A DNA stretch of 64,000 nucleotides from Candidatus Nomurabacteria bacterium (GCA_943359485.1 CALRHR010000001.1:51141-115140), one strand, 5' to 3'; shown: positions 1 to 56,500, counted from the first letter of the stretch. The notes: generated from the letters alone by a model not told the origin. A program made the numbers and translations.

Positions 1-1276
1 TATCAATAACAAAAGCACTGTGCACAAAGTCCCCGAGGGGAAATCTTACGGACCAGTAGAAGTGAGTTTGAGGAAAAGTAAACTTTTTGTAAACCTGTCG
101 AGTCAGATAAATGCTTGGTCAAGTCATGGAGATTCAGTAAAAAAAGCACCGACTGGTTTCAAAATTATTGCGACTTCTAAGGGTGGCAAAGTAATCGAAG
201 CGATGGAAAATACCAAAGAAAAACTTTACGCGGTGCAGTTCCATCCGGAAGTCGAGCAGACAGAAGATGAAAATATTATTTTAAATAATTTTGTAAAGAA
301 AATTTGCGCTTGTAAACAAGACTATTTTAAAAAAGATGCAATAAAAACCATTTGTAAAGAGATAGGCGAGAATACAAAAAATATTTTAGGTGATAAAGGC
401 GTAGCCATCATAGGAGTTTCCGGTGGAGTGGATTCTACGACACTTGCGGCGATACTGACGCCAGTACTAGGTAAACAATTGAAGGCATTCTTGGTAGACA
501 CTGGTGGAATGCGGAAGGGTGAAATAGAAAAAGTTAAAAGTATTGCAAAGAAAGCAAAAATAAATCTGGAAGTGATAAGTAAATACAAAAACAAATTTAT
601 CGAAAATGTGGGAAAAAGCATAAATGCGGAAGAAAAAAGAAAAAATTTTCGTGAGGTTTATGGGGAAGTTTTTAAAGAAGTGGCAAAATTTTACGGAGCG
701 ACGCACATGATCCAAGGCACTCTTGCCACTGATTTGATAGAGTCAGGATCTACGGGAAAATCTGCATTGATCAAAACTCATCACAATGTGGATTTGAAAT
801 TGGGACTCAAAGAAATAATGCCGTTCGCTGACTTTTTTAAATTTGAAGTGCGTGATATAGCGCGGTCATTTGGTTTAGGAGAATTAGTTTCAGGGCGTCA
901 GCCATTTCCTGGACCAGGATTGTATTTACGGGTAGTGGGGGTACCGGTAACCACAGAATTACTGGAGATTGTGCGTGAAGCCGATGACGAAGTAAGAAAA
1001 ATTTTAGAAAAACATAATTTATATAATAAAATTTCACAAACGATAGTAGCTCTTCTCGGCACGAAGACTGTTGGTGTTAAAGGCGACGGGCGAGTTTACG
1101 GATATTCTTTGGTGGTTCGCACAGTAGAGACGGCAGATTTTATGACAGTTAAAGGTTTTTATTTGCCACCTATTGTCTGCGAGGAAATCACCAATACTTT
1201 AGTCAAACATCCAAAAATTGTCCGTGTTCTTTACGACTGGACGACCAAACCCCCAGCCACGACAGAATTTGAATAA
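1..1276 (+). CDS. guaA: GMP synthase (glutamine-hydrolysing), 5' end truncated by window edge
   Basis: The frame is open back to position 1. It contains the GATase His motif QFHPEV, the ATP-pyrophosphatase P-loop GVSGGVDSTT, and a conserved guaA C-terminal dimerisation domain. Confidence 0.9.
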   Translation, partial: INNKSTVHKVPEGKSYGPVEVSLRKSKLFVNLSSQINAWSSHGDSVKKAPTGFKIIATSKGGKVIEAMENTKEKLYAVQFHPEVEQTEDENIILNNFVKKICACKQDYFKKDAIKTICKEIGENTKNILGDKGVAIIGVSGGVDSTTLAAILTPVLGKQLKAFLVDTGGMRKGEIEKVKSIAKKAKINLEVISKYKNKFIENVGKSINAEEKRKNFREVYGEVFKEVAKFYGATHMIQGTLATDLIESGSTGKSALIKTHHNVDLKLGLKEIMPFADFFKFEVRDIARSFGLGELVSGRQPFPGPGLYLRVVGVPVTTELLEIVREADDEVRKILEKHNLYNKISQTIVALLGTKTVGVKGDGRVYGYSLVVRTVETADFMTVKGFYLPPIVCEEITNTLVKHPKIVRVLYDWTTKPPATTEFE

Positions 1277-1322
1277 GGTGGTATAATACATTTATGATTA
1301 AGAATATTATTTTATAAATTTT

Positions 1323-2018
1323 ATGGAGAAAAAATCTTTTCAAGAAAATCCTGACAATCACTTTGACACTGAAATGCGTTTGAGGGCATTAGAGGGTGCT
1401 GAAGCAAGCCATAGTGCAAAAATGGCTGATGAAGACCGTTTGGGCGTACCAAGCTACGATGAAAGTATGGTTTCAGATTGGATTAGAAACAGGATAGATA
1501 TACCAAAGGATATGATAGGGGGGAAAGGTGTATTTAAAGTTGAAACAAGTGCACAACCAGAAGGGGATTATGAAAGAGATTTAAAAATACTTCAAGCTCT
1601 TACAAAAGATCAGCTAGACAAACTTTTAGCCACAGTAGAAAATGAAAGCAAGAAAGACAAAGGGCTTTTTTCTAAAGGCGATTTACTAAATGGATATGCA
1701 ATTGATCCTGAAACCTTACAATCTTTACAAACTAGGGACCACCATGGGACGGCGAAAGATCTTGCGCTAAGCATATTGTATAGTATGGATGATGAAAAAA
1801 TTACTGAAAATACAGAAAATTATTTAATGAGAAGAATCATAGCGGGCATGGTTTTTTTTAAGGTGCCTGGTTTTAGAACTCCCATAATAAAATTTAACCC
1901 ATTCGTTTCAGTAAAAACAAACGATAAAGTACCTGAAGACAATGTTAAAAAAATTTCAAACCACCTAAAGCGAGAAAGAAAATTATTGCCCATTACTTCA
2001 GATTTTCAAGTACTTTAG
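1323..2018 (+). CDS. hypothetical protein
   Basis: 231 aa ORF with no recognisable motif. Confidence 0.5.
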   Translation: MEKKSFQENPDNHFDTEMRLRALEGAEASHSAKMADEDRLGVPSYDESMVSDWIRNRIDIPKDMIGGKGVFKVETSAQPEGDYERDLKILQALTKDQLDKLLATVENESKKDKGLFSKGDLLNGYAIDPETLQSLQTRDHHGTAKDLALSILYSMDDEKITENTENYLMRRIIAGMVFFKVPGFRTPIIKFNPFVSVKTNDKVPEDNVKKISNHLKRERKLLPITSDFQVL

Positions 2019-2034
2019 GATGTTTTTCTTCCTA

Positions 2035-2062
2035 TCTCTAATTCGCGCGAATAGACGAATAG
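2035..2062. promoter_or_regulatory. palindromic element TCTCTAATTCGCGCGAATAGACGAATAG upstream of ArsR-like gene
   Basis: Near-perfect palindrome CTAATTCGCGCGAATAG. A second copy lies at 2367-2400, directly after the same gene. Confidence 0.5.
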
Positions 2063-2105
2063 ATATAGTGTGTTATGTTATATAAAGTTTTGGTATAATA
2101 AAAGA

Positions 2106-2372
2106 ATGAACGAGAAGGAACTCGAAAAAGTTTTAAAAGCGCTTGCTAATAAGCGCCGGGTTGCGATTTTAAAATTTCTCAAGCATACCAAGCAGGCATC
2201 GGTGGGGGAAATCGCAGACGCTATAAAATTGTCTTTCAAAGCAACATCAAAACATCTAATGATTCTTTCAAATACAGATATAGTTGAAAAAGAGCAGAGT
2301 AGTCTCACGATGCTTTATTTTGTACCCAAGACCAATCATCCAATAGTTTCTAAATTATTATCCATTATCTAA
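2106..2372 (+). CDS. ArsR/SmtB-family winged-helix transcriptional regulator
   Basis: The HTH core RRVAILKFL...ASVGEIADAIKLSFKATSKHLMIL is typical of ArsR. The likely start is the internal ATG at 2106 rather than the ORF-track start at 2070. Confidence 0.7.
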   Translation: MNEKELEKVLKALANKRRVAILKFLKHTKQASVGEIADAIKLSFKATSKHLMILSNTDIVEKEQSSLTMLYFVPKTNHPIVSKLLSII

Positions 2373-2400
2373 TCTCTAATTCGCACGAATAGGCGAATAG
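2367..2400. promoter_or_regulatory. second copy of the ArsR-flanking palindrome (TCTCTAATTCGCACGAATAGGCGAATAG)
   Basis: Near-identical to the element at 2035-2062. Confidence 0.5.
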
Positions 2401-2407
2401 TTTAAAT

Positions 2408-3049
2408 ATGCAGGATTTTACTAAAAAAGAAAAAGCTTTATTAAAGAAATTGGATACTCCAGCGAAGGTGCAGGATTTTTTAAATGGAATTCCTTTTAAT
2501 TTTGAAAAAAGGGGAGAGACATTAAAATCCCCATTAATGGTTTTACGAACAAAAAGCGCGCATTGTTTCGAGGGGGCGCTTTTGGGCGCATATATTTTAT
2601 CTCTTCATGGTTTCACTCCATATGTTTTGCATTTAAAAAGTATCAAAGATGACTACGATCATATCATAACGCCATTTAAGATTGAGGGATTGTGGGGCGC
2701 GCTTTCTAAAACCAATCATGCGGTCTTGCGTTATCGCGAGCCAATCTATAAAAATATTCGTGAGCTCGCGATCTCGTATTTTCATGAATATTTTTTAAAT
2801 GATGGAAAGAAAACTTTGAGACAGTACTCCCAACCTTTAAATTTAAATACTTTAAATAAACCCACCCGACCGAACGGTCGTCCGGGCGGGAATTGGGTAA
2901 CTAGTGAAAAAGATTTGTGGTATATAGATAAAAAATTAGATAAAATAAAACACTATGACATCATACCTAAAGCGCACATAAAAAATCTGCGCAAAGCAGA
3001 CAAAATTGAAATCAAGGCAGGGAAGGTGGTAGAATACAAGAAGCCATAA
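2408..3049 (+). CDS. hypothetical protein, possibly a transglutaminase/papain-like Cys-His fold
   Basis: SAHCFEGALLGAYIL resembles the transglutaminase-core Cys motif, and a downstream DYDHII provides a candidate His. The match is weak. Confidence 0.3.
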   Translation: MQDFTKKEKALLKKLDTPAKVQDFLNGIPFNFEKRGETLKSPLMVLRTKSAHCFEGALLGAYILSLHGFTPYVLHLKSIKDDYDHIITPFKIEGLWGALSKTNHAVLRYREPIYKNIRELAISYFHEYFLNDGKKTLRQYSQPLNLNTLNKPTRPNGRPGGNWVTSEKDLWYIDKKLDKIKHYDIIPKAHIKNLRKADKIEIKAGKVVEYKKP

Positions 3050-3081
3050 ATTCTTGAGGGCTACAAAAATGAGATGTAATC

Positions 3082-3113
3082 CTTACTTCACTAACGGCCG
3101 TCAGTGTGGTAAG
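3082..3113. promoter_or_regulatory. palindromic box CTTACTTCACTAACGGCCGTCAGTGTGGTAAG upstream of PaaX-like gene
   Basis: It has a CGGCCG-centred inverted repeat nested inside a CTTAC...GTAAG outer repeat. A near-identical copy lies at 3698-3733. Confidence 0.5.
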
Positions 3114-3121
3114 ATAATCAC

Positions 3122-3697
3122 ATGAGGGGACAAATACTTTTAAAGGCTCTGGAAGTGCTCACAGATTGCGCATTGACTCAAGTTGATTTTATTGAGGCAG
3201 TGCTTGCGAGTGGTTACGGGGCGGGTTTAGGGAAACTTGATTATGAATTTAGAAAAAGGCGAAGTGTAAGAGAGCGGGCAAATCTCAGAGAAGAGTATAA
3301 AACAGAACGCCGAAGGAGATTACAAAATTTTTTATACCAGATGAAACATGACGGATTGCTGGATGCTACTAAAGATAATAAATTGACCGTTTCTATAAAA
3401 GGAAAACAAAAAATAAAGGAACTAAAAAATAAATTACCTGGGCGTTACTACCTTAAAACAAAGACAACACAGATCACCATCATTAGTTTTGATATACCAG
3501 AGAAATTAAGGAGAAAGCGAAACTGGTTACGGGAAGTGATTAGGAATCTTGGGTTTAAAATGATACATCAGAGTGTTTGGATGGGGAAAAACAAAATCCC
3601 TGCAGAATTCATAGAGGATCTTGAGAACTTAAGAATTTTGGAATATGTTGAGATTCTGGAAGCTACTAAGAGCGGAAGTTTGAAGAAATTGGTATAA
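3122..3697 (+). CDS. short PaaX-family-like regulator (winged helix plus PaaX/Cas2-like middle domain)
   Basis: ITIISFDIPEKLRRKRNWLREVIRNLGFKMIHQSVW matches the PaaX WDGKW...L.QGFG block and the Cas2-like beta-alpha-beta pattern. It is a paralog of the 32676-33221 gene. Confidence 0.5.
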   Translation: MRGQILLKALEVLTDCALTQVDFIEAVLASGYGAGLGKLDYEFRKRRSVRERANLREEYKTERRRRLQNFLYQMKHDGLLDATKDNKLTVSIKGKQKIKELKNKLPGRYYLKTKTTQITIISFDIPEKLRRKRNWLREVIRNLGFKMIHQSVWMGKNKIPAEFIEDLENLRILEYVEILEATKSGSLKKLV

Positions 3698-3733
3698 TCT
3701 TACTCTACTAACGGCCGTCAGTTGGGTAAGATT
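3698..3733. promoter_or_regulatory. downstream copy of PaaX-like flanking palindrome (ATCTTACTCTACTAACGGCCGTCAGTTGGGTAAGAT)
   Basis: Matches the 3082-3113 element. Confidence 0.5.
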
Positions 3734-3966
3734 TGGATAATTGCTAGATTGCTAGATTGCTAGGAGTCTTCTTTTCTTCTTTTTCATGGCAGTATTCTTT
3801 TTGGGTTTTCTGTATTGTTCGTTTTTTTTATTTTCAGTATTTTTAATTATTACGACATTTAAAATGCATCAATATTAGACGATACAGGATGGGGCGGCGA
3901 GAATTGGGGAGATGGTTAATTTTCACAAAAATCTTGCTCTTCTCGGAGCCTTGCTGATGCTTTTGT

Positions 3967-4413
3967 CTATTCCTTTGCCTTGGGTGGTCTCTCTAGCTCT
4001 GCAATAGCTTGATCTAAAAAATCATTTGCTTTTTTTATCTCTTCTGCCGTAATTCTATTTTCCCCTGTCTTTCTATCTTCTCCTGTACGTAATCCTTCTT
4101 CAAATACTTTAAAATTTTCAAAATCAACTAGCAAACTTGCACTTAAATCTATCCTTGATTCTATCGCATGTAAAAAATATCTAACTATCTTCAGAAAAAA
4201 ACTTTTTCTGCATTTATATATAGCAAATTCTGGATTTGTTTTTGGAGTTAATAAGTATTCTGGTATTTCATCAATAAAATCATTACGAAAAATACGAAAT
4301 ATTTCTAAATATCGTTCTTTTGGACTTTCTATATTTTTTGTAGCAAGAAATTTTTGATTTAGCGCTCGTGTTTTAGACGTACCCTCATATGCAGTTGTTT
4401 GTCGAGCTTCCAT
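3967..4413 (-). CDS. hypothetical protein
   Basis: 148 aa ORF lying downstream of nrdB on the same strand. Confidence 0.45.
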   Translation of the reverse strand: MEARQTTAYEGTSKTRALNQKFLATKNIESPKERYLEIFRIFRNDFIDEIPEYLLTPKTNPEFAIYKCRKSFFLKIVRYFLHAIESRIDLSASLLVDFENFKVFEEGLRTGEDRKTGENRITAEEIKKANDFLDQAIAELERPPKAKE

Positions 4414-4471
4414 TTTTTTATTTTAATACATCCTTAAATGAATATTTTTATAGGAATTTAATTTACTTCTA

Positions 4472-21854: not shown

Positions 21855-21996
21855 CTTTTTTCTACACGACAACTAGTCTTGACTTCCATCTATGCTTGGC
21901 ATATACTCTTCTGAGCGTCTTTCCATTGGTTGGATAGGCGTTTTGATTTACTCCACCAAGTCGGGGTAAAATACTCTTTGACAAAAGAATAGGTTT

Positions 21997-22030: not shown

Positions 22031-22037
22031 AGTAAAT

Positions 22038-22104
22038 CCGCACACTTATATTTTGATCGTTTTTCAAACGCGCTTTTAGCGCAATCAAAAAATAAGTGTG
22101 CGGG
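22038..22104. repeat. extended hairpin element CCGCACACTTAT...ATAAGTGTGCGG (copy 1, upstream of 16S rRNA)
   Basis: The 12-bp outer inverted repeat carries nested inner stems (TTTTGAT/ATCAAAA, GCGCT/AGCGC). A second copy with the same outer stem and compensatory inner stems lies at 29264-29331. Confidence 0.6.
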
Positions 22105-22267
22105 TAAAGTATAAATAATTTTTAGAGCAAAGATTGAACTCTAACGAATCCAACAAAAATAATACGAATCGTAACATCCAAGGGTCGACGATGCAAAGCA
22201 TCGGAGATACTGAGGAGCGAAGCGACGAATGTACTGTTTTTTGTTTTGTTTCGTTCTAATTAACTTT

Positions 22268-23910
<1,643 letters not shown>

Positions 23911-24137
23911 TTGAAAACTATCCCGGTCCTCTTCGGAGGGCTGAGTGTCAGACCCGTTCTGACCGGATTTATTGAGTCGGTATTGTGTCGCTCAATTGAC
24001 GACACAATAGTTTTTGCTCAAACTTAAAATGAGCTAGACTATATGGAAAGACATATAAAATAAAAAAGTTTCAGCCTTCGGGCTGATCCGCCTCTGGCGG
24101 AAAAAAGGAACGAAACAAAACAAAGGACAGTAACAAA

Positions 24138-28803: not shown

Positions 28804-28984
28804 ATATGAATTATAACACTAATTTATGTATTCCCATTGGCTCGAATTTTTGATACAATATAGTAAAGAATTGTTTTTATCTGTAGCGGGTGGTCGCACT
28901 CACATAGGCACATATGTTGGAGTTTCGCCATCACCCGCTTCAAATGAAAATAATAAAATAAAAAATCACAAAATATTTTTTGTG

Positions 28985-29113
28985 ATTTTTTATTTTGTAC
29001 ACTTCACTTCGTTCAGTGTCCTCAATTTTGTAATTTGCTACGCAAAAATAAAATTGGTTTGTACATTCACTTCGTTCAGTGTCCTCAATTTTTTAAATTT
29101 TCTTCGAAAATAA
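28985..29113. repeat. two tandem copies of a ~65-bp repeat containing ACTTCACTTCGTTCAGTGTCCTCAATTTT
   Basis: Two direct copies at about 85% identity. A third partial copy TCACTTCGTTCA lies at 29427. Confidence 0.6.
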
Positions 29114-29263
29114 AAAATTGGGAGTTATCCACAGTTTTGTGAAAAAAGTATTGTATTTAATTTCTATATGCGGGATAATTAAAGAGTTCCCGCAATAATT
29201 ATTGAAAATATTTTTTCTTTAATTTTAAAAAAATGTTTTCAGGTCGTTTTATTGCAAACTAGA

Positions 29264-29331
29264 CCCGCACACTTATTTGCTTGAAGCGCCATAGACGCAA
29301 GTTGCAAATATCAAGCACATAAGTGTGCGGG
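29264..29331. repeat. extended hairpin element CCCGCACACTTAT...ATAAGTGTGCGGG (copy 2)
   Basis: Shares the outer stem of the 22038-22104 element, and its inner stem TTGCTTGA/TCAAGCAA carries compensatory changes. Confidence 0.6.
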
Positions 29332-29360
29332 TAAAATTTAATAATTTAATTAAAAATCAT

Positions 29361-29423
29361 ATGGCAGCAAAAAAAAAGAAAGTAGCAAAGAAGGCAGCAA
29401 AGAAGGGAAAGAAACGAGCGTAG
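29361..29423 (+). CDS. candidate micro-ORF encoding a 20-aa lysine-rich peptide MAAKKKKVAKKAAKKGKKRA
   Basis: The ATG sits 30 nt after the hairpin element and a rho-independent terminator follows. Real coding status is uncertain. Confidence 0.25.
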   Translation: MAAKKKKVAKKAAKKGKKRA

Positions 29424-29460
29424 TTTTTCACTTCGTTCAAGATCACGACAAATGTCGAGA

Positions 29461-29491
29461 TCTTTAAAAAACTTCCGTCGAACGACGGAAG
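29461..29491 (+). terminator. rho-independent terminator
   Basis: AACTTCCGTCGAACGACGGAAGTT followed by TTTTTTT. Confidence 0.75.
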
Positions 29492-29592
29492 TTTTTTTAT
29501 TTTGCCTGTTCCGTACCAAAATCAACGATATCCAGAAATAGGTAAAAATAAAAAGCTTTTATATTTTGGTGTAGGATGCTAGTATTATACTT

Positions 29593-32121
29593 ATGGGTCT
29601 ATTCAGTAAAATATTTGGCGACGAAAGCTCGAAATTCATCGGTCAAGCTGAGAAAATAGTAGTCAAAATCAATGCTCTCGAGGCGGGTATTTCAAAGTTG
29701 GCTGATTCTGATTTTCCCCAAAAAACGCAGGAATTCAAGGATAGACTGGGTAAGGGTGAGACCTTGGATGATATCTTGCCGGAAGCCTTTGCTCTAGTAA
29801 GAGAAGCCCAAAGAAGAACTTTGGGAATTCGGCTTTATGATGTTCAACTTATTGGAGGATTAGCTCTCCATCAAGGTAAAATTGCCGAAATGAAAACAGG
29901 TGAAGGAAAGACAAATGTTGCTACGCTCCCGCTTTATTTAAATGCTTTGACGGGAGAGGGCACACACCTTGTTACTGTGAATGATTATCTGGCGCGTCGT
30001 GATGCGGTTTTGATGGGTCAAGTTTATAATTTCCTTGGTCTCTCCATTGGTGTTATAAATTCAAATAATATTTCTTATCTTTATGATCCCTCGCACAAAG
30101 AAGAAGATAAAGAACGAGATCAAGTTGGTGAGTTTAAAATTATTTATGATTTTTTAAAACCATCTACTCGCAGAGGTGCATATGCCGCTGATATCACATA
30201 TGGCACGAATCATGAATATGGGTTTGATTATCTACGAGATAATTTAGCAGTATCAATCGAAGGTCTGGTTCAGCGTGGACATCATTTTGCTATTGTCGAC
30301 GAAGTGGATTCTATTTTAATAGACGAAGCGCGTACTCCGCTTATTATCTCAAGTGTGGCTGGAGACTCGGAAGATTTTTATGTAAAATTTTACCAAATCG
30401 CCAAACAGTTGAAGCGAGATACAGATTATGAAGTGGATGAAAAATTGCGCACGATAACTTTAACCGATACGGGTATAACTAAAGCTGAACAACTCCTCGG
30501 AGTGGGAAATATTTACACGGAAAAAGGCATAAAATATGTGCATCATTTAGAAACCGCAGTCAAAGCGCAAGCTATTTTTGAAAAAGATAAAGACTATGTG
30601 GTCAAAGAAGGGGAGGTGGTCATTGTTGACCCCTTTACTGGACGCTTGCAACCGGGACGGCGTTGGAGTGAGGGAATACATCAGGCGATTGAAGCCAAAG
30701 AGGGCGTAAAGATCGAAAAAGAAACTCGCTCGTCCGGCTCGATTACTTTTCAGAACTATTTTAGATTCTATAAAAAGCTCTCAGGTATGACAGGCACGGC
30801 AGCAACTTCTGCCGAAGAATTTTTGAAAGTTTATGGGCTTGATGTTGTTGTGATTCCGACCAATCGTCTGGTGGTGCGTAAAGATTTAAATGATTTAATT
30901 TTTCAAACTGAGAAGGGCAAGTTCCAAGCAATAGCCAAAAAAGTGAAAGAATTAAATATCCAAGGTCAGCCGGTTTTGATTGGTACTATATCTATTGAGA
31001 AGAATGAACTTTTGTCCGTATACCTAAAACAAGAAGGCGTACAGCATACGATTTTAAATGCCAAGAACCATGAGAAGGAAGGTGAAATCATCGCTCAAGC
31101 TGGGAAGCGTGGTGCGGTCACTATCGCTACGAATATGGCTGGGCGTGGTATAGATATAAAACTTGGTGGCAATCCAATTGTCAAAGAAGAATATGAATTT
31201 GTAAAAAGTGTTGGTGGACTGTTTGTGTTAGGAACAGAAAGGCATGAAGCTAGGAGAATTGACAATCAGCTTCGAGGTCGTTCCGGCCGGCAGGGTGACC
31301 CGGGCGAGACGCAGTTTTTTGTTTCGCTAGAAGATGATTTGATGCGTGTTTTCGGATCGGAGAAAATTAAAACTATGATGGGTAGATTTGGTATACCAGA
31401 AGATATGCCGATTGAAAATCGCTTTATCGGCAAAACTCTTGAAGGAGCACAGTCAAAGATAGAGGGTTTTCATTTTGATGCTCGTAAGCATACTCTGGAA
31501 TACGATGATGTGATGAATCATCAAAGAAAAATAATTTATGAGAGACGGCAGAAGATGCTTTTTGCTGACAAGGAGGGTATCGAAAAAGTTTTAGAGGATA
31601 CCTCAGCCGGACGCGAAAATGCGGAAAATATTATAAAAGAAAAAAGAGAAAAGCTGGGCGAGGCCGGATTTCTAGAAACTGTCAGGCGAATTGCTTTATA
31701 CACAACTGATACATTATGGATGGAACATCTGGAAGCGATGGATTATTTGCGTAGTTCGGTTAACTTGCGCGCGTATGGTCAACGGGAACCGATAGTGGAA
31801 TATAAGAAAGATGGCTTGGCGATGTTTAAAGAAATGGAAGAAGTTTTCAAAGAACAAGTTTTTTCATTAATTACTACAATTCAAGAAGCTCCAAAGGGAG
31901 ACGATGTAGGAATGAAGCAAACTCTGGTGACCAGTCACGCTGAACCTAGTGAAATGGGAGGTGCGAAAGATTTATCGGATGTAGCTGGGGTAAAAAATGA
32001 AGTCGGCCGCAATGATCCTTGCCCATGTGGAGCTATCAATCCCGCTACCGGTGAAGTCTACAAATACAAAAAATGCGGCCTCATAAACGCTTCGCAACAC
32101 AGAAAATCATTAATTAATTGA
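29593..32121 (+). CDS. secA: preprotein translocase ATPase SecA
   Basis: Has the DEAD-like motor motifs (GEGKTNVATLP, DEVDSILIDEARTPLIIS) and the C-terminal zinc finger CPCG...KKCG. Confidence 0.95.
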   Translation: MGLFSKIFGDESSKFIGQAEKIVVKINALEAGISKLADSDFPQKTQEFKDRLGKGETLDDILPEAFALVREAQRRTLGIRLYDVQLIGGLALHQGKIAEMKTGEGKTNVATLPLYLNALTGEGTHLVTVNDYLARRDAVLMGQVYNFLGLSIGVINSNNISYLYDPSHKEEDKERDQVGEFKIIYDFLKPSTRRGAYAADITYGTNHEYGFDYLRDNLAVSIEGLVQRGHHFAIVDEVDSILIDEARTPLIISSVAGDSEDFYVKFYQIAKQLKRDTDYEVDEKLRTITLTDTGITKAEQLLGVGNIYTEKGIKYVHHLETAVKAQAIFEKDKDYVVKEGEVVIVDPFTGRLQPGRRWSEGIHQAIEAKEGVKIEKETRSSGSITFQNYFRFYKKLSGMTGTAATSAEEFLKVYGLDVVVIPTNRLVVRKDLNDLIFQTEKGKFQAIAKKVKELNIQGQPVLIGTISIEKNELLSVYLKQEGVQHTILNAKNHEKEGEIIAQAGKRGAVTIATNMAGRGIDIKLGGNPIVKEEYEFVKSVGGLFVLGTERHEARRIDNQLRGRSGRQGDPGETQFFVSLEDDLMRVFGSEKIKTMMGRFGIPEDMPIENRFIGKTLEGAQSKIEGFHFDARKHTLEYDDVMNHQRKIIYERRQKMLFADKEGIEKVLEDTSAGRENAENIIKEKREKLGEAGFLETVRRIALYTTDTLWMEHLEAMDYLRSSVNLRAYGQREPIVEYKKDGLAMFKEMEEVFKEQVFSLITTIQEAPKGDDVGMKQTLVTSHAEPSEMGGAKDLSDVAGVKNEVGRNDPCPCGAINPATGEVYKYKKCGLINASQHRKSLIN

Positions 32122-40910: not shown

Positions 40911-40981
40911 TAAAAAACCTAAAATAAAAAATCTCTGTGAAAGGCTCCAGCTAGGCTGGAGGAATGTAGAGATTTTTTATT

Positions 40982-42172
40982 TTAGGTTTTTATGTTCCAC
41001 AAATCCCAAACATTTTTTGCTAAATTTATTTTCGGTCCTTCCATAGCAAAATAATGCAGGTCAATGAAGGGCAGGGAGTTACATTCAATAATTCCCCATC
41101 TTTGCGTATCTGGATCCTTGGTTGGATCTTCCATAATTAAATCAAAACCCGCCACTGGTGCTTCTACTATTTTACCAGCTTTTTGGAAAATTTTGTGAAT
41201 CCTTGGGTGTATTTCTGGGAGCATTTCTTTAGTATAGCTACCGTACATTCGGCCTGTCTTGGCTGAGAGGTTAATGGTTGTGCCAAGAGGTGGCACGGTT
41301 TCAATGGTCTGACCCTGCCTTTTTATAAAATTTAGTAAATCTTCGTTGATCAAAATCTCGGATAGTTTTTCGTGACGGTTGGCATTTTTATTTTCTATAT
41401 GTTCTCGGATAGTTTTTTTACCGTCCCCAGTGATTTGTGGCGGGTCTCCACGGAAAAATCCTACTAGCTCGCCATTAATGACGGTAGCTCTATAAATACT
41501 ACCATGGAGATGTTCCTGTATTACTACAGATGGAGTAATCTCCTTAGCTAAATTAAATGCATTTTTTAATTCTTCCTCGGTATTTATGTTAGTTGTAGTG
41601 TGTCGTCCTCGTGAGCCATGTCTTGGTTTGATGATTACCGGTTTGCATAGTTCATGGAAGGATCCTTTGGCAAACTTCCATAGGTAAGTTTTTTTTGTTT
41701 TTGGGACGGAAATGCTATTTTCATTTAGCATATTGAAAAGAATAAATTTGTCATCTAGCCATCTGTAGCCACCTTGATTCATCCATGGTGGGATTGGCAG
41801 ACTTTCGAAATAGAAAACTTTATTATTTATTTTTGCCTTATATAGCTCAATAGGCTTACCAAATATAACGACTTGGGACATGTGAATATCCCGCCTTATT
41901 GCTTCTTCCCAAATTAATTTCGAACGGCCAGTTAAGGCCTTTTCGACATCAAAGTTAAATCTGACTATTCCGATATAAGACATTCCCGTAAATAATATTT
42001 TCTCAACCAAAGACGCAAAATTTCGTCTTCTATTGGTCGAAGATAAATTAAAAATTTTAGTGTCAAACTGGTCAGTAACTTCATTCAAGAAGTTTCCAAT
42101 CAACAAGAGTTTGTGATTAATCGGGCTAGTTCCGCAAGCGCTACATTTATGGCGGGTATTGTCTTCTCTCAT
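40982..42172 (-). CDS. ATP-grasp domain ligase (RimK/cyanophycin-synthetase-like)
   Basis: Shows an ATP-grasp pattern (KPRHGSRGRHTT..., EHLHG, IIECNSLP). It sits next to the mur cluster. Confidence 0.5.
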   Translation of the reverse strand: MREDNTRHKCSACGTSPINHKLLLIGNFLNEVTDQFDTKIFNLSSTNRRRNFASLVEKILFTGMSYIGIVRFNFDVEKALTGRSKLIWEEAIRRDIHMSQVVIFGKPIELYKAKINNKVFYFESLPIPPWMNQGGYRWLDDKFILFNMLNENSISVPKTKKTYLWKFAKGSFHELCKPVIIKPRHGSRGRHTTTNINTEEELKNAFNLAKEITPSVVIQEHLHGSIYRATVINGELVGFFRGDPPQITGDGKKTIREHIENKNANRHEKLSEILINEDLLNFIKRQGQTIETVPPLGTTINLSAKTGRMYGSYTKEMLPEIHPRIHKIFQKAGKIVEAPVAGFDLIMEDPTKDPDTQRWGIIECNSLPFIDLHYFAMEGPKINLAKNVWDLWNIKT

Positions 42173-47013: not shown

Positions 47014-47032
47014 TGTCAAAGGCGGGCTTTGA
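47014..47032. repeat. REP hairpin GTCAAAGGCGGGCTTTGAC
   Basis: Perfect 7-bp stem; identical copies lie at 47658 and 47738. Confidence 0.7.
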
Positions 47033-47642
47033 CATCAAAATTCAGTGTTTGCTCTATAAAGTTTTTAGTGTCTCCAAAAGTTTCCAGTAAGAATTCTTTA
47101 CTAACTATTGGCAAGTTTCGGTCTGATGCATAATCATTATAACTACCCCACTGATATTCTTTTGGATGTTTCACTAATCCATCTTTTACTGGATTCATGT
47201 GAATATAAGATGATGTCCACATCAGCTGAGGATCGCCTTTAATAAGTACTGCCTTAAATTTGTCTTGAAAAACATGCCCAACTTTTTTATATTTTTTATT
47301 AATGTATCTAGAATAACTAGTACAAAGTTTTAACATTAATTTTGAAATTGGCATGTCTACAATTTGTTCAATTAGAAAATGGAAGTGGTTTGGCATCAGA
47401 CAAAAAGCATACAAATTAAAAGCCCCTTTTTCCATTTTAGTTATCCTGATTCTAGAGTAGGGTAGGGCAGTTAATTTTTCTTTGTTTAATTCTTCTTCAG
47501 TAAATCCCAAAGACAGTCCCAGTCTAAAGAGGAAAGCTCTATAATCCTGCTCATCGAAAAATATCTTCTCCTTATTATTGCCACGATTATAGATGTGATA
47601 AATACCACCAGGAGCAAATTCTTTAAAGTCTCTATTATTCAT
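47016..47642 (-). mobile_element. IS200/IS605-like Y1 (HUH) transposase, REP-associated tyrosine transposase type
   Basis: Contains YHIYNRGN, the HUH motif MPNHFHFLI and a catalytic Tyr region. REP hairpins flank it on both sides. Confidence 0.8.
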
Positions 47643-47654
47643 ACTTGTAAGTAT

Positions 47655-47760
47655 ATGTCAAAGGCGGGCTTTGACAAGGGGAAGTTATCAACAGGGCATA
47701 TAAAATGTGTCAAAGTGTGCCAAGGGCGATGTGTCAAAGGCGGGCTTTGACACACAGTTT
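47655..47760. repeat. cluster of REP hairpins (two perfect GTCAAAGGCGGGCTTTGAC copies plus one degenerate copy)
   Basis: Perfect copies at 47658 and 47738; degenerate copy GTCAAAGTGTGCCAAGGGCGATGTGTC at about 47708. Confidence 0.7.
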
Positions 47761-53090: not shown

Positions 53091-53102
53091 GTAAAATCAA
53101 AA

Positions 53103-53160
53103 AGGCGGTCGTTCATCGCTGAACGGGTCCGCCTTTTGTTTTGCGCGTGGGGCTCGCACG
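53103..53160. terminator. bidirectional terminator hairpins
   Basis: AAAGGCGGTCGTTCATCGCTGAACGGGTCCGCCTTTTGTTTTG, plus a second hairpin CGCGTGGGGCTCGCACGCG. Confidence 0.6.
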
Positions 53161-53248
53161 CGCGATGTTTTCATGAGCCCTCCTTTCTCCGAAGTTGATC
53201 TGCTTCGGGCAGAGACCTTCTTTGCGCTGGTCAGGCGCTCCGAGAGAA

Positions 53249-54253
53249 TTACTCCCGGATGTATACACCTGTGGCTGGGGTTGCCCCCTCGCCACAGAAC
53301 TTCCAGATCCCCGCCATCCCGATGGACGGCGGGGGGGTGGTGCCGAAGGTCTCTGTATGAGATCCTCCGTCCGGGTCAAACACCTTCATGGAGCCCCGAT
53401 CGGGACCCCACTGGCTGTTGATCCGTAGGTTCCGTTCGTAACAGCCATCTGTTCCGAACGGGTAGAGGGTGGGTGTCGGCCCTACCTTCGCGGGCGCCGG
53501 GGCTGTCGAGGCCACCGGCGTGGATGTCCGGCTACCTGCCGGTGAGGGGGGTGCGGGAGGTAACAATCCCCCAAAAAATCCACCCACTGTCTCCCGGATC
53601 TCGGTCCCGACCCGTTGGGCTACTTTGTCGCCGACTACAGCCTTTTTTGCTGTGTCGATAGCCACTGGGCCGATGCCGCGCCCCTCGGATGCCGCCTGAT
53701 CTGCTTCCTCCCACTTCGTCGTGGGGGCGGGAATCGCGGGGACCGTCATTGGCGTCGCCGACTTCGGCCGAGCCATCTCGGCCGATCGTGGCATTTCCCT
53801 TGCCACGAAAAGGGAAATCAACACTATTCCGAAGATGGTGAGCGCTGGCTTCACTCGGCCGTGTGCCGTCATTGCGGCGATCACGACCGAACAAAAAAAC
53901 AGCGCTACCCAAATTAAGATATCCGTACTGGCTGTTGGGTATAGCCATGGGCGTGGTCCCGTGGTGAGAAAGTAGCTGAAGGCGAAGTTATTGCTAACTC
54001 CGACAACAGTAGTTCCCACCATCATGACGAATGTAAGCGTAGAGAACCCGACGATGAATTTCTTCATTCCATCGGAAATTCCGCCGCCGTGTGCCGCCGC
54101 GGGTCGCGAGAGGCCGCCCCAGCCTTGGTGCTGGGCCAGCTTGTAAAGGCCGTACAGCACTCCGCCGACGATAGCGACGGTCCAGGGGTTCCAGCCGAAT
54201 GAGCTCGACACCCAATACACTCCCAGGGCCGCGATTGCAAATTTCCAAAACAT
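53249..54253 (-). CDS. polytopic membrane protein with Pro/Thr-rich extracellular C-terminal region (GC-rich island gene C)
   Basis: Several predicted TM helices and a high-GC codon bias. The leader repeat lies immediately upstream. Confidence 0.55.
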   Translation of the reverse strand: MFWKFAIAALGVYWVSSSFGWNPWTVAIVGGVLYGLYKLAQHQGWGGLSRPAAAHGGGISDGMKKFIVGFSTLTFVMMVGTTVVGVSNNFAFSYFLTTGPRPWLYPTASTDILIWVALFFCSVVIAAMTAHGRVKPALTIFGIVLISLFVAREMPRSAEMARPKSATPMTVPAIPAPTTKWEEADQAASEGRGIGPVAIDTAKKAVVGDKVAQRVGTEIRETVGGFFGGLLPPAPPSPAGSRTSTPVASTAPAPAKVGPTPTLYPFGTDGCYERNLRINSQWGPDRGSMKVFDPDGGSHTETFGTTPPPSIGMAGIWKFCGEGATPATGVYIRE

Positions 54254-54254
54254 T

Positions 54255-54600
54255 TCATTTCTTCCTTAACTCCGTCCCCTTGACTGGGCAACATGGAGTT
54301 GGAGCAGACTGATCAGAGTACTACAACCGCTTGCGCGTTTGTCTTACTTTGAATAGTCTGCCCGCTAGGAAGCCGGATTTTTTCTCTCCTCTCCTTACCC
54401 CCTCCGCTTTCAGCACCTCCCCCTAAATAGGGGGAGGCCGGGTAGGGGTACAAAGGGGTGAGGGTTCAGCTACATGGCGGGCAAACCATTCATTTTGCTC
54501 GAAATTCTACTTACTTCTTATTTAATTTTCGAAGGTCAGCTTTACCTATGTATTGTATCACACTTATGACAAAAAGTCAAGCCCTTTGGGCTGAATTTGT
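54255..54600 (-). promoter_or_regulatory. ~310-bp AT-rich leader, copy 1: near-consensus sigma-70 promoter plus structured 5' UTR
   Basis: On the minus strand the promoter reads TTGACT-N17-TACAAT (about 54560-54590). The leader has a conserved P1 hairpin UCGAAAAUU...AAUUUCGA and a closing helix UGCCCG/CGGGCA around a variable GC-rich core. It is duplicated at 56190-56500. Confidence 0.6.
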
Positions 54601-54783
54601 CCTTATTTTGTAAGGTTAAAATGATAAAAGGGCCGCCTCAGTGAAGAGACAGCCCTTTGTTTTGCGCTGGGCCTGTGCGCGATTTGGGCCCTGGGTTGAC
54701 GAGTCCCCGTTGCGTCACTCTGGTTTGTTCCCTCCAGACGGGAGACCTCTATTTTGTAAGCGCTGGTCAGGTGCTTTGTCTTT

Positions 54784-55281
54784 TTAGGGGCAGTACCGGC
54801 TTGCCCCCTCTTCGAGGGGGTTGAACGGCCGTTTCTTCCCGTCCTCCCCGACGATCTCGTCGGGGCAGCCGAATTTCTTGTGTTTGGGGGTCCCTACCCC
54901 CAGAATTTTGTCGACGGCCTGGTCGAGCGCTTGCCCGACAGAGACCGCCGACTTGCCGTCGCCGAGTCCAAGACTCCCGAGGACCTTGTTGATCCCCTCG
55001 AGGGCCGCGTTCCCGGCGGTCTTTCCGATCTCAAGCGCGCGCCGATTGCGCAGCGCGCGGGCCTTGGCTAGAATCGTCGGAGTGCTGTCCTCCGGATGCG
55101 CCTCGAGCCAGGCCAGCGTCTTGCTGGCCCCGTCATAGAGCGCCTTCGCTCCCTCGATTGTTGTAGCGGCTGGAGCCTTCTCCAGAGCCGCCACTTTCTG
55201 CGCCATTTTTTCTTGTCGGCTGGCGCCACAACCGACCGCCGTGAGTGCCACGGCGAGCACGAACGTCAAGAGGAAATTCAT
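54784..55281 (-). CDS. putative lipoprotein (GC-rich island gene B)
   Basis: The signal sequence MNFLLTFVLAVALTAVGC has a lipobox-like Cys, and a strong GGAGG SD lies upstream. The region is high-GC. Confidence 0.5.
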   Translation of the reverse strand: MNFLLTFVLAVALTAVGCGASRQEKMAQKVAALEKAPAATTIEGAKALYDGASKTLAWLEAHPEDSTPTILAKARALRNRRALEIGKTAGNAALEGINKVLGSLGLGDGKSAVSVGQALDQAVDKILGVGTPKHKKFGCPDEIVGEDGKKRPFNPLEEGASRYCP

Positions 55282-56153
55282 TTCTTCCCTCCCCCTCCAA
55301 ACATTCCCTTGACTATCCACTCCAGGGGCTGGGTGACTACCTCACCCAGGGAGTGTTTGGCGGCCAACTCCCCAATGCCGCCAATCTTCCATTTCCTAAT
55401 ACCCCCGAGGACCTCGTCCCAACGGGAGCAGACGATGGCTCCGACGAGCGCTATCATCTGCCACCCGAGAACTCCCCACCCCATAGCCTTCTCCCCGAAG
55501 AGAAACGAGTTAATGGTTGCCCAAAAACCGAATTCCCCCAGGGGATCCTCGAGCGGAGTCGTTGCCACAGCCCAGAACTGGGCTTTGGCGATTTCGATGG
55601 GGTTTAGGGTTGCTGGCGCCGCGGTAGGGTCCACCCACCACAAAAACACCACCCCTAACACCATCCACACCGTCGTGCGAAGTACCCAGTTGTTGTCGCC
55701 GAGCCGGATCAGGACACTCCGCCCGATCTCCGCAGCCCCACGGCCGTGAGTCTCGATTCCCGCGAAGATGGCGAAGACCGCGAGCGTGGTCACGAGGGCA
55801 ACTAGCGTAAAGGCTGGGTAGCCGAACCAAAAACCGAAGACGATCCAGTAGAGTACTATGAACAGCGCCCCCCAGAATCCCACGGTCTTCGGCTTGATCA
55901 CTACCTCGCCTTCGTCGCAAGCGCCATCGCCTACGACTTCGGCCCTAATGATGTGTCGTCCCGGTTTGAGGTCTTTGAGCTCGAAGCTCGCGACCCCGCC
56001 TTCCGTCTTTACGGCGCGCTTGCGCTTGCCGTCGACCGAGAAACGAACCTGGACTTCTTTCTCGCCACCTTTTTTCCCGGCGGTGGCCGGCCGGTCTGAC
56101 ACGACGGCTTCCGCCACCGTGTCTTTCTCTACTAAACTCAAAGTCAAAATCAT
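55278..56153 (-). CDS. membrane protein with N-terminal soluble beta-rich domain (GC-rich island gene A)
   Basis: Starts MILTLSLVE after an AGGAGA SD, has several TM helices and shows high-GC codon bias. Confidence 0.55.
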   Translation of the reverse strand: MILTLSLVEKDTVAEAVVSDRPATAGKKGGEKEVQVRFSVDGKRKRAVKTEGGVASFELKDLKPGRHIIRAEVVGDGACDEGEVVIKPKTVGFWGALFIVLYWIVFGFWFGYPAFTLVALVTTLAVFAIFAGIETHGRGAAEIGRSVLIRLGDNNWVLRTTVWMVLGVVFLWWVDPTAAPATLNPIEIAKAQFWAVATTPLEDPLGEFGFWATINSFLFGEKAMGWGVLGWQMIALVGAIVCSRWDEVLGGIRKWKIGGIGELAAKHSLGEVVTQPLEWIVKGMFGGGGKK

Positions 56154-56189
56154 TATCTTTCTCCTAATCAAATTTTTTCTCGAGCACAC

Positions 56190-56500
56190 GATTCAGAATA
56201 CTACAACCACTTGCGTGTTTGTCGTTTCCTGAATAGTCTGCCCATCAATGAGCCGATGCATTTCCTCTCCCTGCGAAGGGGGAGATTTGAGAGGGGGTCT
56301 CAAGAATTACCACCCCTAGCCCCTCCTTAATCAAGGAGGGGAGGAAACATAAAATACTCAGCTTCTTAACGGGCAAACCATTCATTTCCCCGCCAGTCTG
56401 GCCGGGGTAAATTGCTCGAAATTCTACTTACTTCTTATTTAATTTTCGAGTAACAGCTTTACCTATGTATTGTATCACACTTATGACAAAAAGTCAAGCC
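56190..56500 (-). promoter_or_regulatory. ~310-bp AT-rich leader, copy 2
   Basis: About 100 bp are near-identical to copy 1, including TTGACTTTTTGTCATAAGTGTGATACAATACATAGGTAAAGC, and the same P1 hairpin and closing helix are present. Confidence 0.6.

Follow-up and report, generated by a model that had tools for sequence, protein, structure and literature searches.

The two 68-nt palindromic hairpins found upstream of a 16S rRNA gene and upstream of secA in a 64,000-nt stretch of DNA from Candidatus Nomurabacteria (hereafter the window) are probably copies of a non-autonomous, MITE-type mobile DNA element, a reading to which we give a probability of roughly 80%. Because the copies are flanked by target-site duplications and precise empty sites occur in syntenic relatives, the element is not a locus-specific regulatory signal. 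Its family comprises about 30 loci in the candidate phyla radiation (CPR; Candidatus Nomurabacteria/Paceibacteria), and the copies have a nearly fixed length of 66-72 bp, with no ORF and no coding capacity. A search of the literature on MITEs in Patescibacteria/CPR gave nothing relevant, and no published description of the element was found. This family of MITE-like palindromic insertion elements in Nomurabacteria/Paceibacteria is previously undescribed.

The window is a low-GC stretch (about 37% GC), and hundreds of homologues of its SecA, at 82-88% identity, are named Nomurabacteria by their sources. As listed in Table 1, both hairpins are built from 13-nt paired arms, (C/T)CCGCACACTTAT and ATAAGTGTGCGGG, with an arm spacing of 54 nt. 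The common outer stem of 12-13 bp that the preliminary description had reported is present in the sequence and is followed in both copies by a 1x1 mismatch, a 7-bp inner stem and a small three-way junction; the folding energies of -30.9 and -31.1 kcal/mol correspond to strongly negative z-scores of -8.9 and -6.5 against shuffles. The position described for the first copy was roughly right, but with arms of 13 nt it starts at 22037 rather than 22038. The 12-mer CCGCACACTTAT has four exact matches in the window, one per strand at each hairpin and nowhere else, and the 17-mer ATAAGTGTGCGGGTAAA (right arm plus GTAAA), with at most three mismatches, has four matches against 0.14 expected. The inner stems are unlike yet paired, TTTTGAT/ATCAAAA in one copy and TGCTTGA/TCAAGCA in the other, in agreement with the divergent but self-complementary stems noted before, and the interiors of the two copies run in opposite orientations. 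The tail GGGTAAA(G/A)T, also described as shared, does exist, but its GGG is the end of the right arm and its TAAA is the flanking repeat, that is, the target-site duplication. The further AT-rich similarity TAATAATTT lies outside the element, because the empty sites of relatives already carry this sequence. With a covariance model (R1) and filters off, the window yields copies 1 and 2 only.

Table 1. Coordinates of the features discussed (window positions unless a locus is named)
Feature	Position	Strand	Basis or remark
Likely 16S promoter, TTGACT-17-TATACT	21879-21907	+	consensus scan, 10/12 match
boxA-like motif ACTCTTTGACAA in 16S leader	21973-21984	+	read from sequence; similar motif in L013
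Upstream target-site duplication of copy 1, TAAA	22033-22036	.	
Element copy 1	22037-22104	.	covariance model R1, 77.6 bits, E 3.7e-16
Copy 1 left arm, TCCGCACACTTAT	22037-22049		
Copy 1 middle		 	inner stem, small GC hairpin and AT hairpin, between the arms
Copy 1 right arm, ATAAGTGTGCGGG	22092-22104		
Downstream target-site duplication of copy 1, TAAA	22105-22108	.	
16S rRNA gene	22266-23911	+	Rfam RF00177, 1346.9 bits
Promoter-like site upstream of copy 2, TTGTAT-17-GATAAT	29151-29179	+	read from sequence
Upstream flank of copy 2, TAGA	29260-29263	.	decayed copy of the duplicated TAAA
Element copy 2	29264-29331	.	covariance model R1, 84.8 bits, E 7e-18
Copy 2 arms	29264-29276 and 29319-29331		
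Downstream flank of copy 2, TAAA	29332-29335	.	
Tiny lysine-rich 20-codon ORF (MAAKKKKVAKKAAKKGKKRA)	29361-29423	+	translation; 29 nt downstream of copy 2
Intrinsic terminator	29466-29497	+	closes the small transcription unit ahead of secA
secA	29593-32121		downstream of the tiny-ORF unit
Y1_Tnp gene	47019-47657	-	best NCBIfam match REP-associated tyrosine transposase model, 67 bits, cut-off 80
GIY-YIG/element unit, L005	1519-1948		
GIY-YIG/element unit, L007	1350-1725		
GIY-YIG/element unit, L042	1489-2344		
GIY-YIG/element unit, L050	1840-2338		

Further copies were searched for with the pattern CGCACACTTAT-N30-60-ATAAGTGTGCG in one genome per GTDB species and in JGI metagenomes; such an exact-arm search favours intact copies in the sample. 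The scans returned 15 loci in genomes and 19 in metagenomes, almost all of them from Nomurabacteria/Paceibacteria (Paceibacterota) or from genomes labelled 'Saccharibacteria', with 1-3 exact-arm copies per genome and two in the 64-kb window. The arm match reaches 13 bp, a length that the pattern did not require, in all loci save the variants L029, L033, L011, L042 and L050. The terminal inverted repeats are therefore of 13 bp, CCCGCACACTTAT...ATAAGTGTGCGGG, with the outer 10 bp or so best conserved and end sequences of CCCGCACACT...AGTGTGCGGG. The copies follow a common plan: inside the arms come a 1x1 position and a variable stem of 7 bp, then a GCGCC-loop-GGCGC hairpin and a second, short hairpin rich in AT. 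The same arms also bound other interiors of 2 bp (28-nt arms-only minis) and 111 bp (a 137-bp version).

In an alignment of 27 distinct copies, 97.6% of the cells were paired, compared with 30-57% in slid controls. Double-sided changes were observed in 13 of 25 pairs (77 cells), and none of 500 shuffles reached such covariation. The arms themselves covary, reading CTCGCAC/GTGCGAG in L029, CCCCCAC/GTGGGGG in L033 and L011, ..CTTAA/TTAAG.. in L042 and ..CTCAA/TTGAG.. in L050, and these variant-arm copies were found by the calibrated covariance model at E values of about 1e-13. Hence the idea that a conserved structured element, with further copies and covariation, would be found was well founded. 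Meanwhile, the covariance model detected no copies in 112 kb from seven relatives (L035-L041), and no copies were found in viral contigs with arm spacers of 0-30 or 30-60 nt. Rfam at gathering thresholds (window and early loci) and at permissive E-values (copy 2) gave sub-threshold miRNA-like hairpin noise only. A match in a 'Gammaproteobacteria' sequence (L014) consisted of two small GCACAC-TTAT-GTGTGC palindromes with no duplication and was treated as unrelated.

The flanks of the copies point to transposition. An exact 4-nt direct repeat abuts the 13-bp arms at 11 of 21 independent loci, and permutation of the flanks of these 21 loci gave a mean of 2.0 and a maximum of 9, with 0 of 20,000 permutations reaching the observed 11. 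The direct-repeat signal was seen in register (0,0) only, and an inverted 4-mer occurred once. When corrected coordinates at two loci and one 5-nt case were included, 14 of 24 repeats were exact and a further eight matched at three of four positions. The duplicated pairs include TTGA, CTTG, CAAG, TATA, TTAT, TGTA and several TAAA or TTTA, and the rare 4-mers CTTG, CAAG, TTAT, TGTA and TATA are equal on both sides. The duplicated target is mostly T-W-W-A (TAAA, TTTA, TTGA, TATA), beginning with T and ending with A in 19 of 24 symmetrised cases. Taken together with the empty sites, the exact flanking direct repeat identifies each copy as an insertion with a 4-bp target duplication, the signature of transposition.

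Empty sites were found at both positions occupied in the window. The 16S-leader site is empty in both syntenic relatives (L037 and L058, the latter with the enolase-16S synteny of the window). Their leaders read TTTGAGTAAGTATAAA(A)TAATTTTT, and the window reads TTTGAGTAAA[element]TAAAGTATAAATAATTTTT; downstream of copy 1 the window continues with TAAAGTATAAA.., and at this site the relatives read TTTGAGTAAGTATAAAT with no element. The site upstream of secA is empty in all seven relatives (L035-L041), which had been picked by SecA alone, blind to the element, and two of them (L036 and L040) read ttgcaaacTAAAatt at the empty site. In the SecA tree the filled and empty secA-upstream loci interleave, and the nearest sampled relatives of the window are empty (L039 and L040, 90.5% and 89.6% SecA identity). 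The 23S gene of L001 is likewise without both intragenic insertions of L033, one of which is common to L015. Conservation at orthologous positions in related genomes, which the preliminary description had put forward as a test of the element, was thus not observed, at either the 16S leader (empty in 2 of 2) or the secA-upstream site (empty in 7 of 7). A processing signal belonging to these two loci, another role proposed there, is contradicted by the same empty syntenic relatives and by the 4-nt direct repeats that mark the copies as insertions.

The rpsG stop codon carries the element in four lineages. As the duplication tracks the stop codon (TAAA with a TAA stop, TAGA with a TAG stop), this site argues for repeated hot-spot insertion rather than a single ancient event.

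Both window copies most likely lie within transcribed leaders. Copy 1 sits between the enolase gene and a lone 16S gene, 162 nt before the latter, and the promoter-like TTGAC(T/A)-17-TATA.. upstream of 16S is kept in L011, L013, L037 and L058 (five genomes with the window), so that the copy is most likely inside the transcribed 16S leader if, as we infer, the promoter is active. The motif ACTCTTTGACAA in this leader resembles the E. coli rrn boxA TGCTCTTTAACAA. For copy 2, the promoter-like TTGT(A/G)(T/A)-17-GATAAT is kept in all seven empty relatives (L035-L041), and the copy most likely belongs to the 5' leader of the tiny lysine-rich ORF, transcription from this site being predicted from its motif. 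The empty relatives keep the ORF, the upstream conserved block and the promoter-like site. Since relatives have both of these units but not the element, the copies in the window are tolerated passengers; judging from these relatives, neither the 16S operon nor the small ORF would need the element.

Several further observations were made around the two copies. At 1646 nt, the 16S gene exceeds its 1533-position model, and the surplus of about 110 nt coincides with an inverted repeat at 23418-23556, a short rRNA insertion typical of CPR bacteria. The region 29125-29497 upstream of secA forms a conserved mini transcription unit which, with its lysine-rich ORF, is also kept in L002, L006, L025, L032 and L035-L041. 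The unit contains a perfect DnaA-box-like TTATCCACA at 29125-29133 plus a conserved GGTCGTTTTATTGCAAAC block. Across relatives its ORF has 20-30 codons, is Lys/Arg-rich, has no Shine-Dalgarno sequence and gave no NCBIfam match; its product may be a tiny peptide that associates with ribosomes or binds nucleic acids. Just upstream, 28826-29113 (with a hairpin at 28870-28954) shows nucleotide-level conservation, also in L032 (43-273), L036, L038 and L040. This stretch contains ..GTAGCGGGTGGTCGCACTCA..GCCATCACCCGCTTCAAATG.. together with a long, though imperfect, inverted repeat. No Pfam match was obtained for its 95-aa ORF, and the stretch may specify a structured RNA that has escaped annotation, not a protein. 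Elsewhere in the window, the minus strand of 53100-56500 holds two blocks of 56-65% GC (37% in the genome), each after a similar AT-rich region of about 280 nt (54302-54583 and 56182-56500, 81-96% identical). The ORFs of these blocks (334 and 303 aa) had no Pfam match, and the interval 52.5-56.5 kb proved to be neither a hidden 23S gene nor a transposase. A perfect 24-nt inverted repeat AAAAACCTAAAATAAAAAATCTCT with a 31-nt spacer at 40913-40991 is unrelated to the element.

The insertions are not evenly spread, with enrichment in rRNA operons (including the inside of 23S) and beside highly expressed genes. The rRNA operons hold about 10 of 24 independent insertions. Three distinct positions are used in 16S leaders (window, L011 and L013) and two insertions lie in 16S trailers (L008 and L011). 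A point 24 nt before the 23S 5' end is filled in L001 and L022 by different subtypes, and the L034 insertion is found 22 nt after the 23S 3' end. Within the 23S genes of L015 and L033 it takes the place of apical-loop nucleotides in two small domain II hairpins, at Rfam LSU model positions ~650-670 and ~686-689; such intragenic sites account for 3 of about 30 copies. The non-rRNA insertions are placed 1-46 nt after stop codons and/or before named genes, those downstream being tuf, dnaK, csp, the HU gene, nusG-rplK, fusA, uvrA, rsmA and lemA, and the L042 copy ends 3 nt before the fusA ATG. As a separate observation, the 23S gene of L001, a Nomurabacteria genome, spans 3766 nt (670-4435) and encloses a group I intron at 1013-1252 as well as a pair of tRNA genes at 2970-3135, which suggests a split or heavily interrupted 23S.

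Such placement bears on the leading idea of the preliminary description, namely that the element is bound as double-stranded DNA, either as an operator or as a promoter-upstream element, by a protein that regulates highly expressed genes. The highly conserved arm sequences and the nearly fixed length would suit a binding site, and in L009, L026 and L030 the element directly abuts a TTGAC(A/T) -35 box followed by a good -10. However, the TTGA of these three boxes is the duplicated target, so the promoter is older than the element and was regenerated downstream of it. Moreover, copies are also found inside 23S, downstream of rRNA genes and downstream of promoters, the interior pairing and covariation would be purposeless in a duplex binding site, and relatives retain their promoters without the element. 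We thus regard an operator as highly improbable. A promoter-proximal element tied to its loci is at odds with copies in either orientation and after stop codons.

A stand-alone small non-coding RNA gene in several paralogous copies, which had also been suggested, is scarcely credible. The stable, conserved fold of about 68 nt with its three-way junction is what such a gene might show, but no promoter or terminator belonging to it recurs at a set distance, its ends coincide with the target-site duplications, some copies are within 23S or 3 nt away from a start or stop codon, the orientation is random, and no Rfam family matches.

A functional RNA hairpin deserves more attention. As a cis-acting processing or stability element, it might for instance be an RNase III site resembling a 23S intervening sequence, or else a 5' stem-loop with a protective role, and selection would retain it in rRNA operons and in leaders of genes with high expression. 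A mobile origin is compatible with this role if the element was exapted. The probable transcription of both window copies from conserved promoter-like sites accords with this explanation, as do the share of copies in rRNA leaders, trailers, 23S flanks and 23S hairpin loops, the copies before tuf, dnaK, csp, the HU gene, nusG-rplK and fusA, the strong covariation, and the rpsG-stop copies kept in four lineages with compensated arms. By analogy, the coaxial 13+7 bp helix is about as long as a minimal RNase III substrate. On the other hand, the closest relatives are without the element at orthologous sites, the target-site duplications indicate placement by insertion, and the three copies directly upstream of a -35 box would be untranscribed from that promoter. 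The pairing itself shows no preference for one strand either: among non-Watson-Crick cells read in the transcribed sense there are 13 G·U and 12 A·C, without bias, which speaks against strand-specific RNA selection. The interior is oriented about 11:9 relative to local transcription and is flipped between orthologous copies (L005 versus L007, L042 versus L050), which implies recurrent inversion between the 13-bp arms or repeated hot-spot re-insertion. A hairpin maintained for its RNA function is therefore possible but doubtful. Because there is no G·U versus A·C bias and interiors flip at orthologous sites, we favour a DNA-level palindrome over a dedicated RNA, and the data suggest that the palindrome is kept symmetrically at the DNA level, e.g. 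by correction between arms.

If the hairpins are mobile DNA as we propose, the element would move by cut-and-paste, with a trans-supplied enzyme making 4-nt staggered cuts. One copy would have landed in the transcribed 16S rRNA leader and the other, upstream of secA, in the 5' leader of the tiny lysine-rich ORF. Termini of the CCC...GGG type combined with T..A duplications suggest, as a lead, a DDE transposase like those of IS1380/piggyBac, and seamless excision of the piggyBac kind would leave sites either intact or cleanly empty. Once transcribed, the element would fold to a compact hairpin of about 20 paired positions. No transposase with the ends of the element was found in the roughly 500 kb of sequence examined, nor did the examined loci, a small search space, contain solo arms, long arm pairs or a DDE transposase adjoining any copy. 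Three features sit less easily with a MITE: the few copies are unusual, though the genomes are smaller than 1 Mb; arms and pairing are better kept than interiors and flanks, with compensatory changes; and neither this retention of pairing nor the rRNA-operon share is obviously predicted by a purely selfish element.

The only transposase-like gene of the window is Y1_Tnp, a RAYT-like gene, and a REP/REPIN-type palindrome moved on single-stranded DNA hairpins by such a REP-associated Y1/HUH transposase was therefore considered. The element is a hairpin with pairing kept symmetrically at the DNA level, and Y1_Tnp homologues occur in relatives (L035, L040 and L041) inside the mur cluster. But Y1_Tnp is surrounded by a different hairpin, TGTCAAAGGCGGGCTTTGACA, in three exact copies (47014, 47656 and 47732) that recur nowhere else in the window (region 47014-47752), the L041 gene is flanked by yet another hairpin, and none of the Y1 genes is flanked by the element, so the RAYT-like protein was rejected as its partner. 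In addition, a single element arm is not palindromic, and the variable 4-bp target duplications are unlike the products of IS200/IS605-type Y1 enzymes. A REP/REPIN origin is accordingly very unlikely.

In L005, L007 and L022, copies of the element adjoin a gene for an 84-aa GIY-YIG protein, which has arms-only mini-palindromes on either side. In many Paceibacteria this gene is antisense between rpsG and fusA, and it is bracketed by full-length copies, 28-nt minis or the 137-bp version, which looks like a composite unit. The GIY-YIG nuclease is probably not an autonomous partner, since its homologues are all at one syntenic rpsG-fusA place and most copies are without such a gene; it would rather seem to be cargo or a neighbour than the enzyme that mobilises the element.

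Because the element is enriched in rRNA operons and beside highly expressed genes, keeps its pairing and forms a helix of about 20 paired positions, there is room for use of the hairpin by the host. A secondary use of the transcribed hairpin, e.g. as an RNase III site, is possible by analogy. A more specific and rather unlikely proposal is that of a 'mobile intervening sequence', in which a seamless cut-and-paste hairpin transposon of IS1380/piggyBac type would home to rRNA and highly-expressed hot spots of CPR bacteria, with its hairpin co-opted as an RNase III processing/stability module. If so, at least some short rRNA insertions and IVS-like stem-loops of CPR ribosomes would have begun as MITE insertions.

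CPR/Patescibacteria have tiny genomes thought to carry few transposable elements, and the element would mark recent genome dynamics in these uncultured bacteria. Unusual insertions in CPR rRNA genes are known, and surveys took only those of at least 100 bp (PMC11270868). Some of the short rRNA insertions that lack an explanation thereby gain a concrete possible source, a 68-bp transposable hairpin that settles in 16S leaders, 23S flanks and 23S helix tips. Annotation should also allow for the fact that a mobile palindrome can pass for a regulatory RNA when it covaries and lies upstream of rRNA.

An integron attC site was rejected, as the ends are CCCGCAC/GTGCGGG, not RYYYAAC/GTTRRRY, and the copies are solitary with target duplications; a terminator was rejected on anatomy. 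Like REP/REPIN sequences, the element is a short hairpin repeat in intergenic DNA with a RAYT-like gene in the same genome. Unlike them, it has target-site duplications and non-palindromic arms, and the hairpins flanking the RAYT-like gene differ from it.

The element also resembles 23S intervening sequences (IVS), in that extended stem-loops are inserted at 23S helix tips (L015 and L033) and are sporadic among relatives. However, most copies lie outside 23S, and the intragenic sites are domain II hairpins 3' of helix 25, unlike classical IVS at the tips of helix 25 or helix 45. Tsurumaki et al. (2024) suggested that short CPR 23S insertions are of the RNase III-removed IVS type, and the 68-bp element falls below the 100-bp cut-off of their survey (PMC11270868).

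A further likeness is to piggyBac, for which CCC...GGG ends and a TTAA 4-bp duplication are the hallmark and variants TAAA and TCAA are reported (PMC10813416), and to IS1380, its prokaryotic counterpart (PMC5718144). The element shows both features, CCC...GGG termini and a TTAA-like 4-bp duplication, and its intact or cleanly empty sites would fit the seamless excision of piggyBac. Its duplicated 4-mers are more varied (CTTG, TGTA, TTAT), and the sequence examined contained no piggyBac/IS1380 transposase gene. We take the link as a resemblance rather than as demonstrated membership.

Among MITEs, the element shows terminal inverted repeats, a fixed-length duplication, precise empty sites and a small non-coding size; no cognate autonomous element with the same ends was found in the loci examined, which is weak evidence in so small a search space. 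The hairpin MITEs available for comparison are the Correia/NEMIS elements of Neisseria, the enterobacterial ERIC, the pneumococcal RUP and the Rickettsia palindromic elements. Like them, it is short and non-coding with terminal inverted repeats and short target-site duplications, is scattered in intergenic regions and inside transcripts or genes, varies in presence among relatives, and can form one hairpin as a whole when transcribed. In contrast to these elements of roughly 100-150 bp, it measures about 68 bp, and its 4-bp T..A duplication is unlike the TA duplicated by Correia and ERIC. It further differs from them in having few copies per genome, the same 13-bp ends across many Paceibacteria species, a conserved three-way-junction interior that flips, and a strong bias to rRNA operons.
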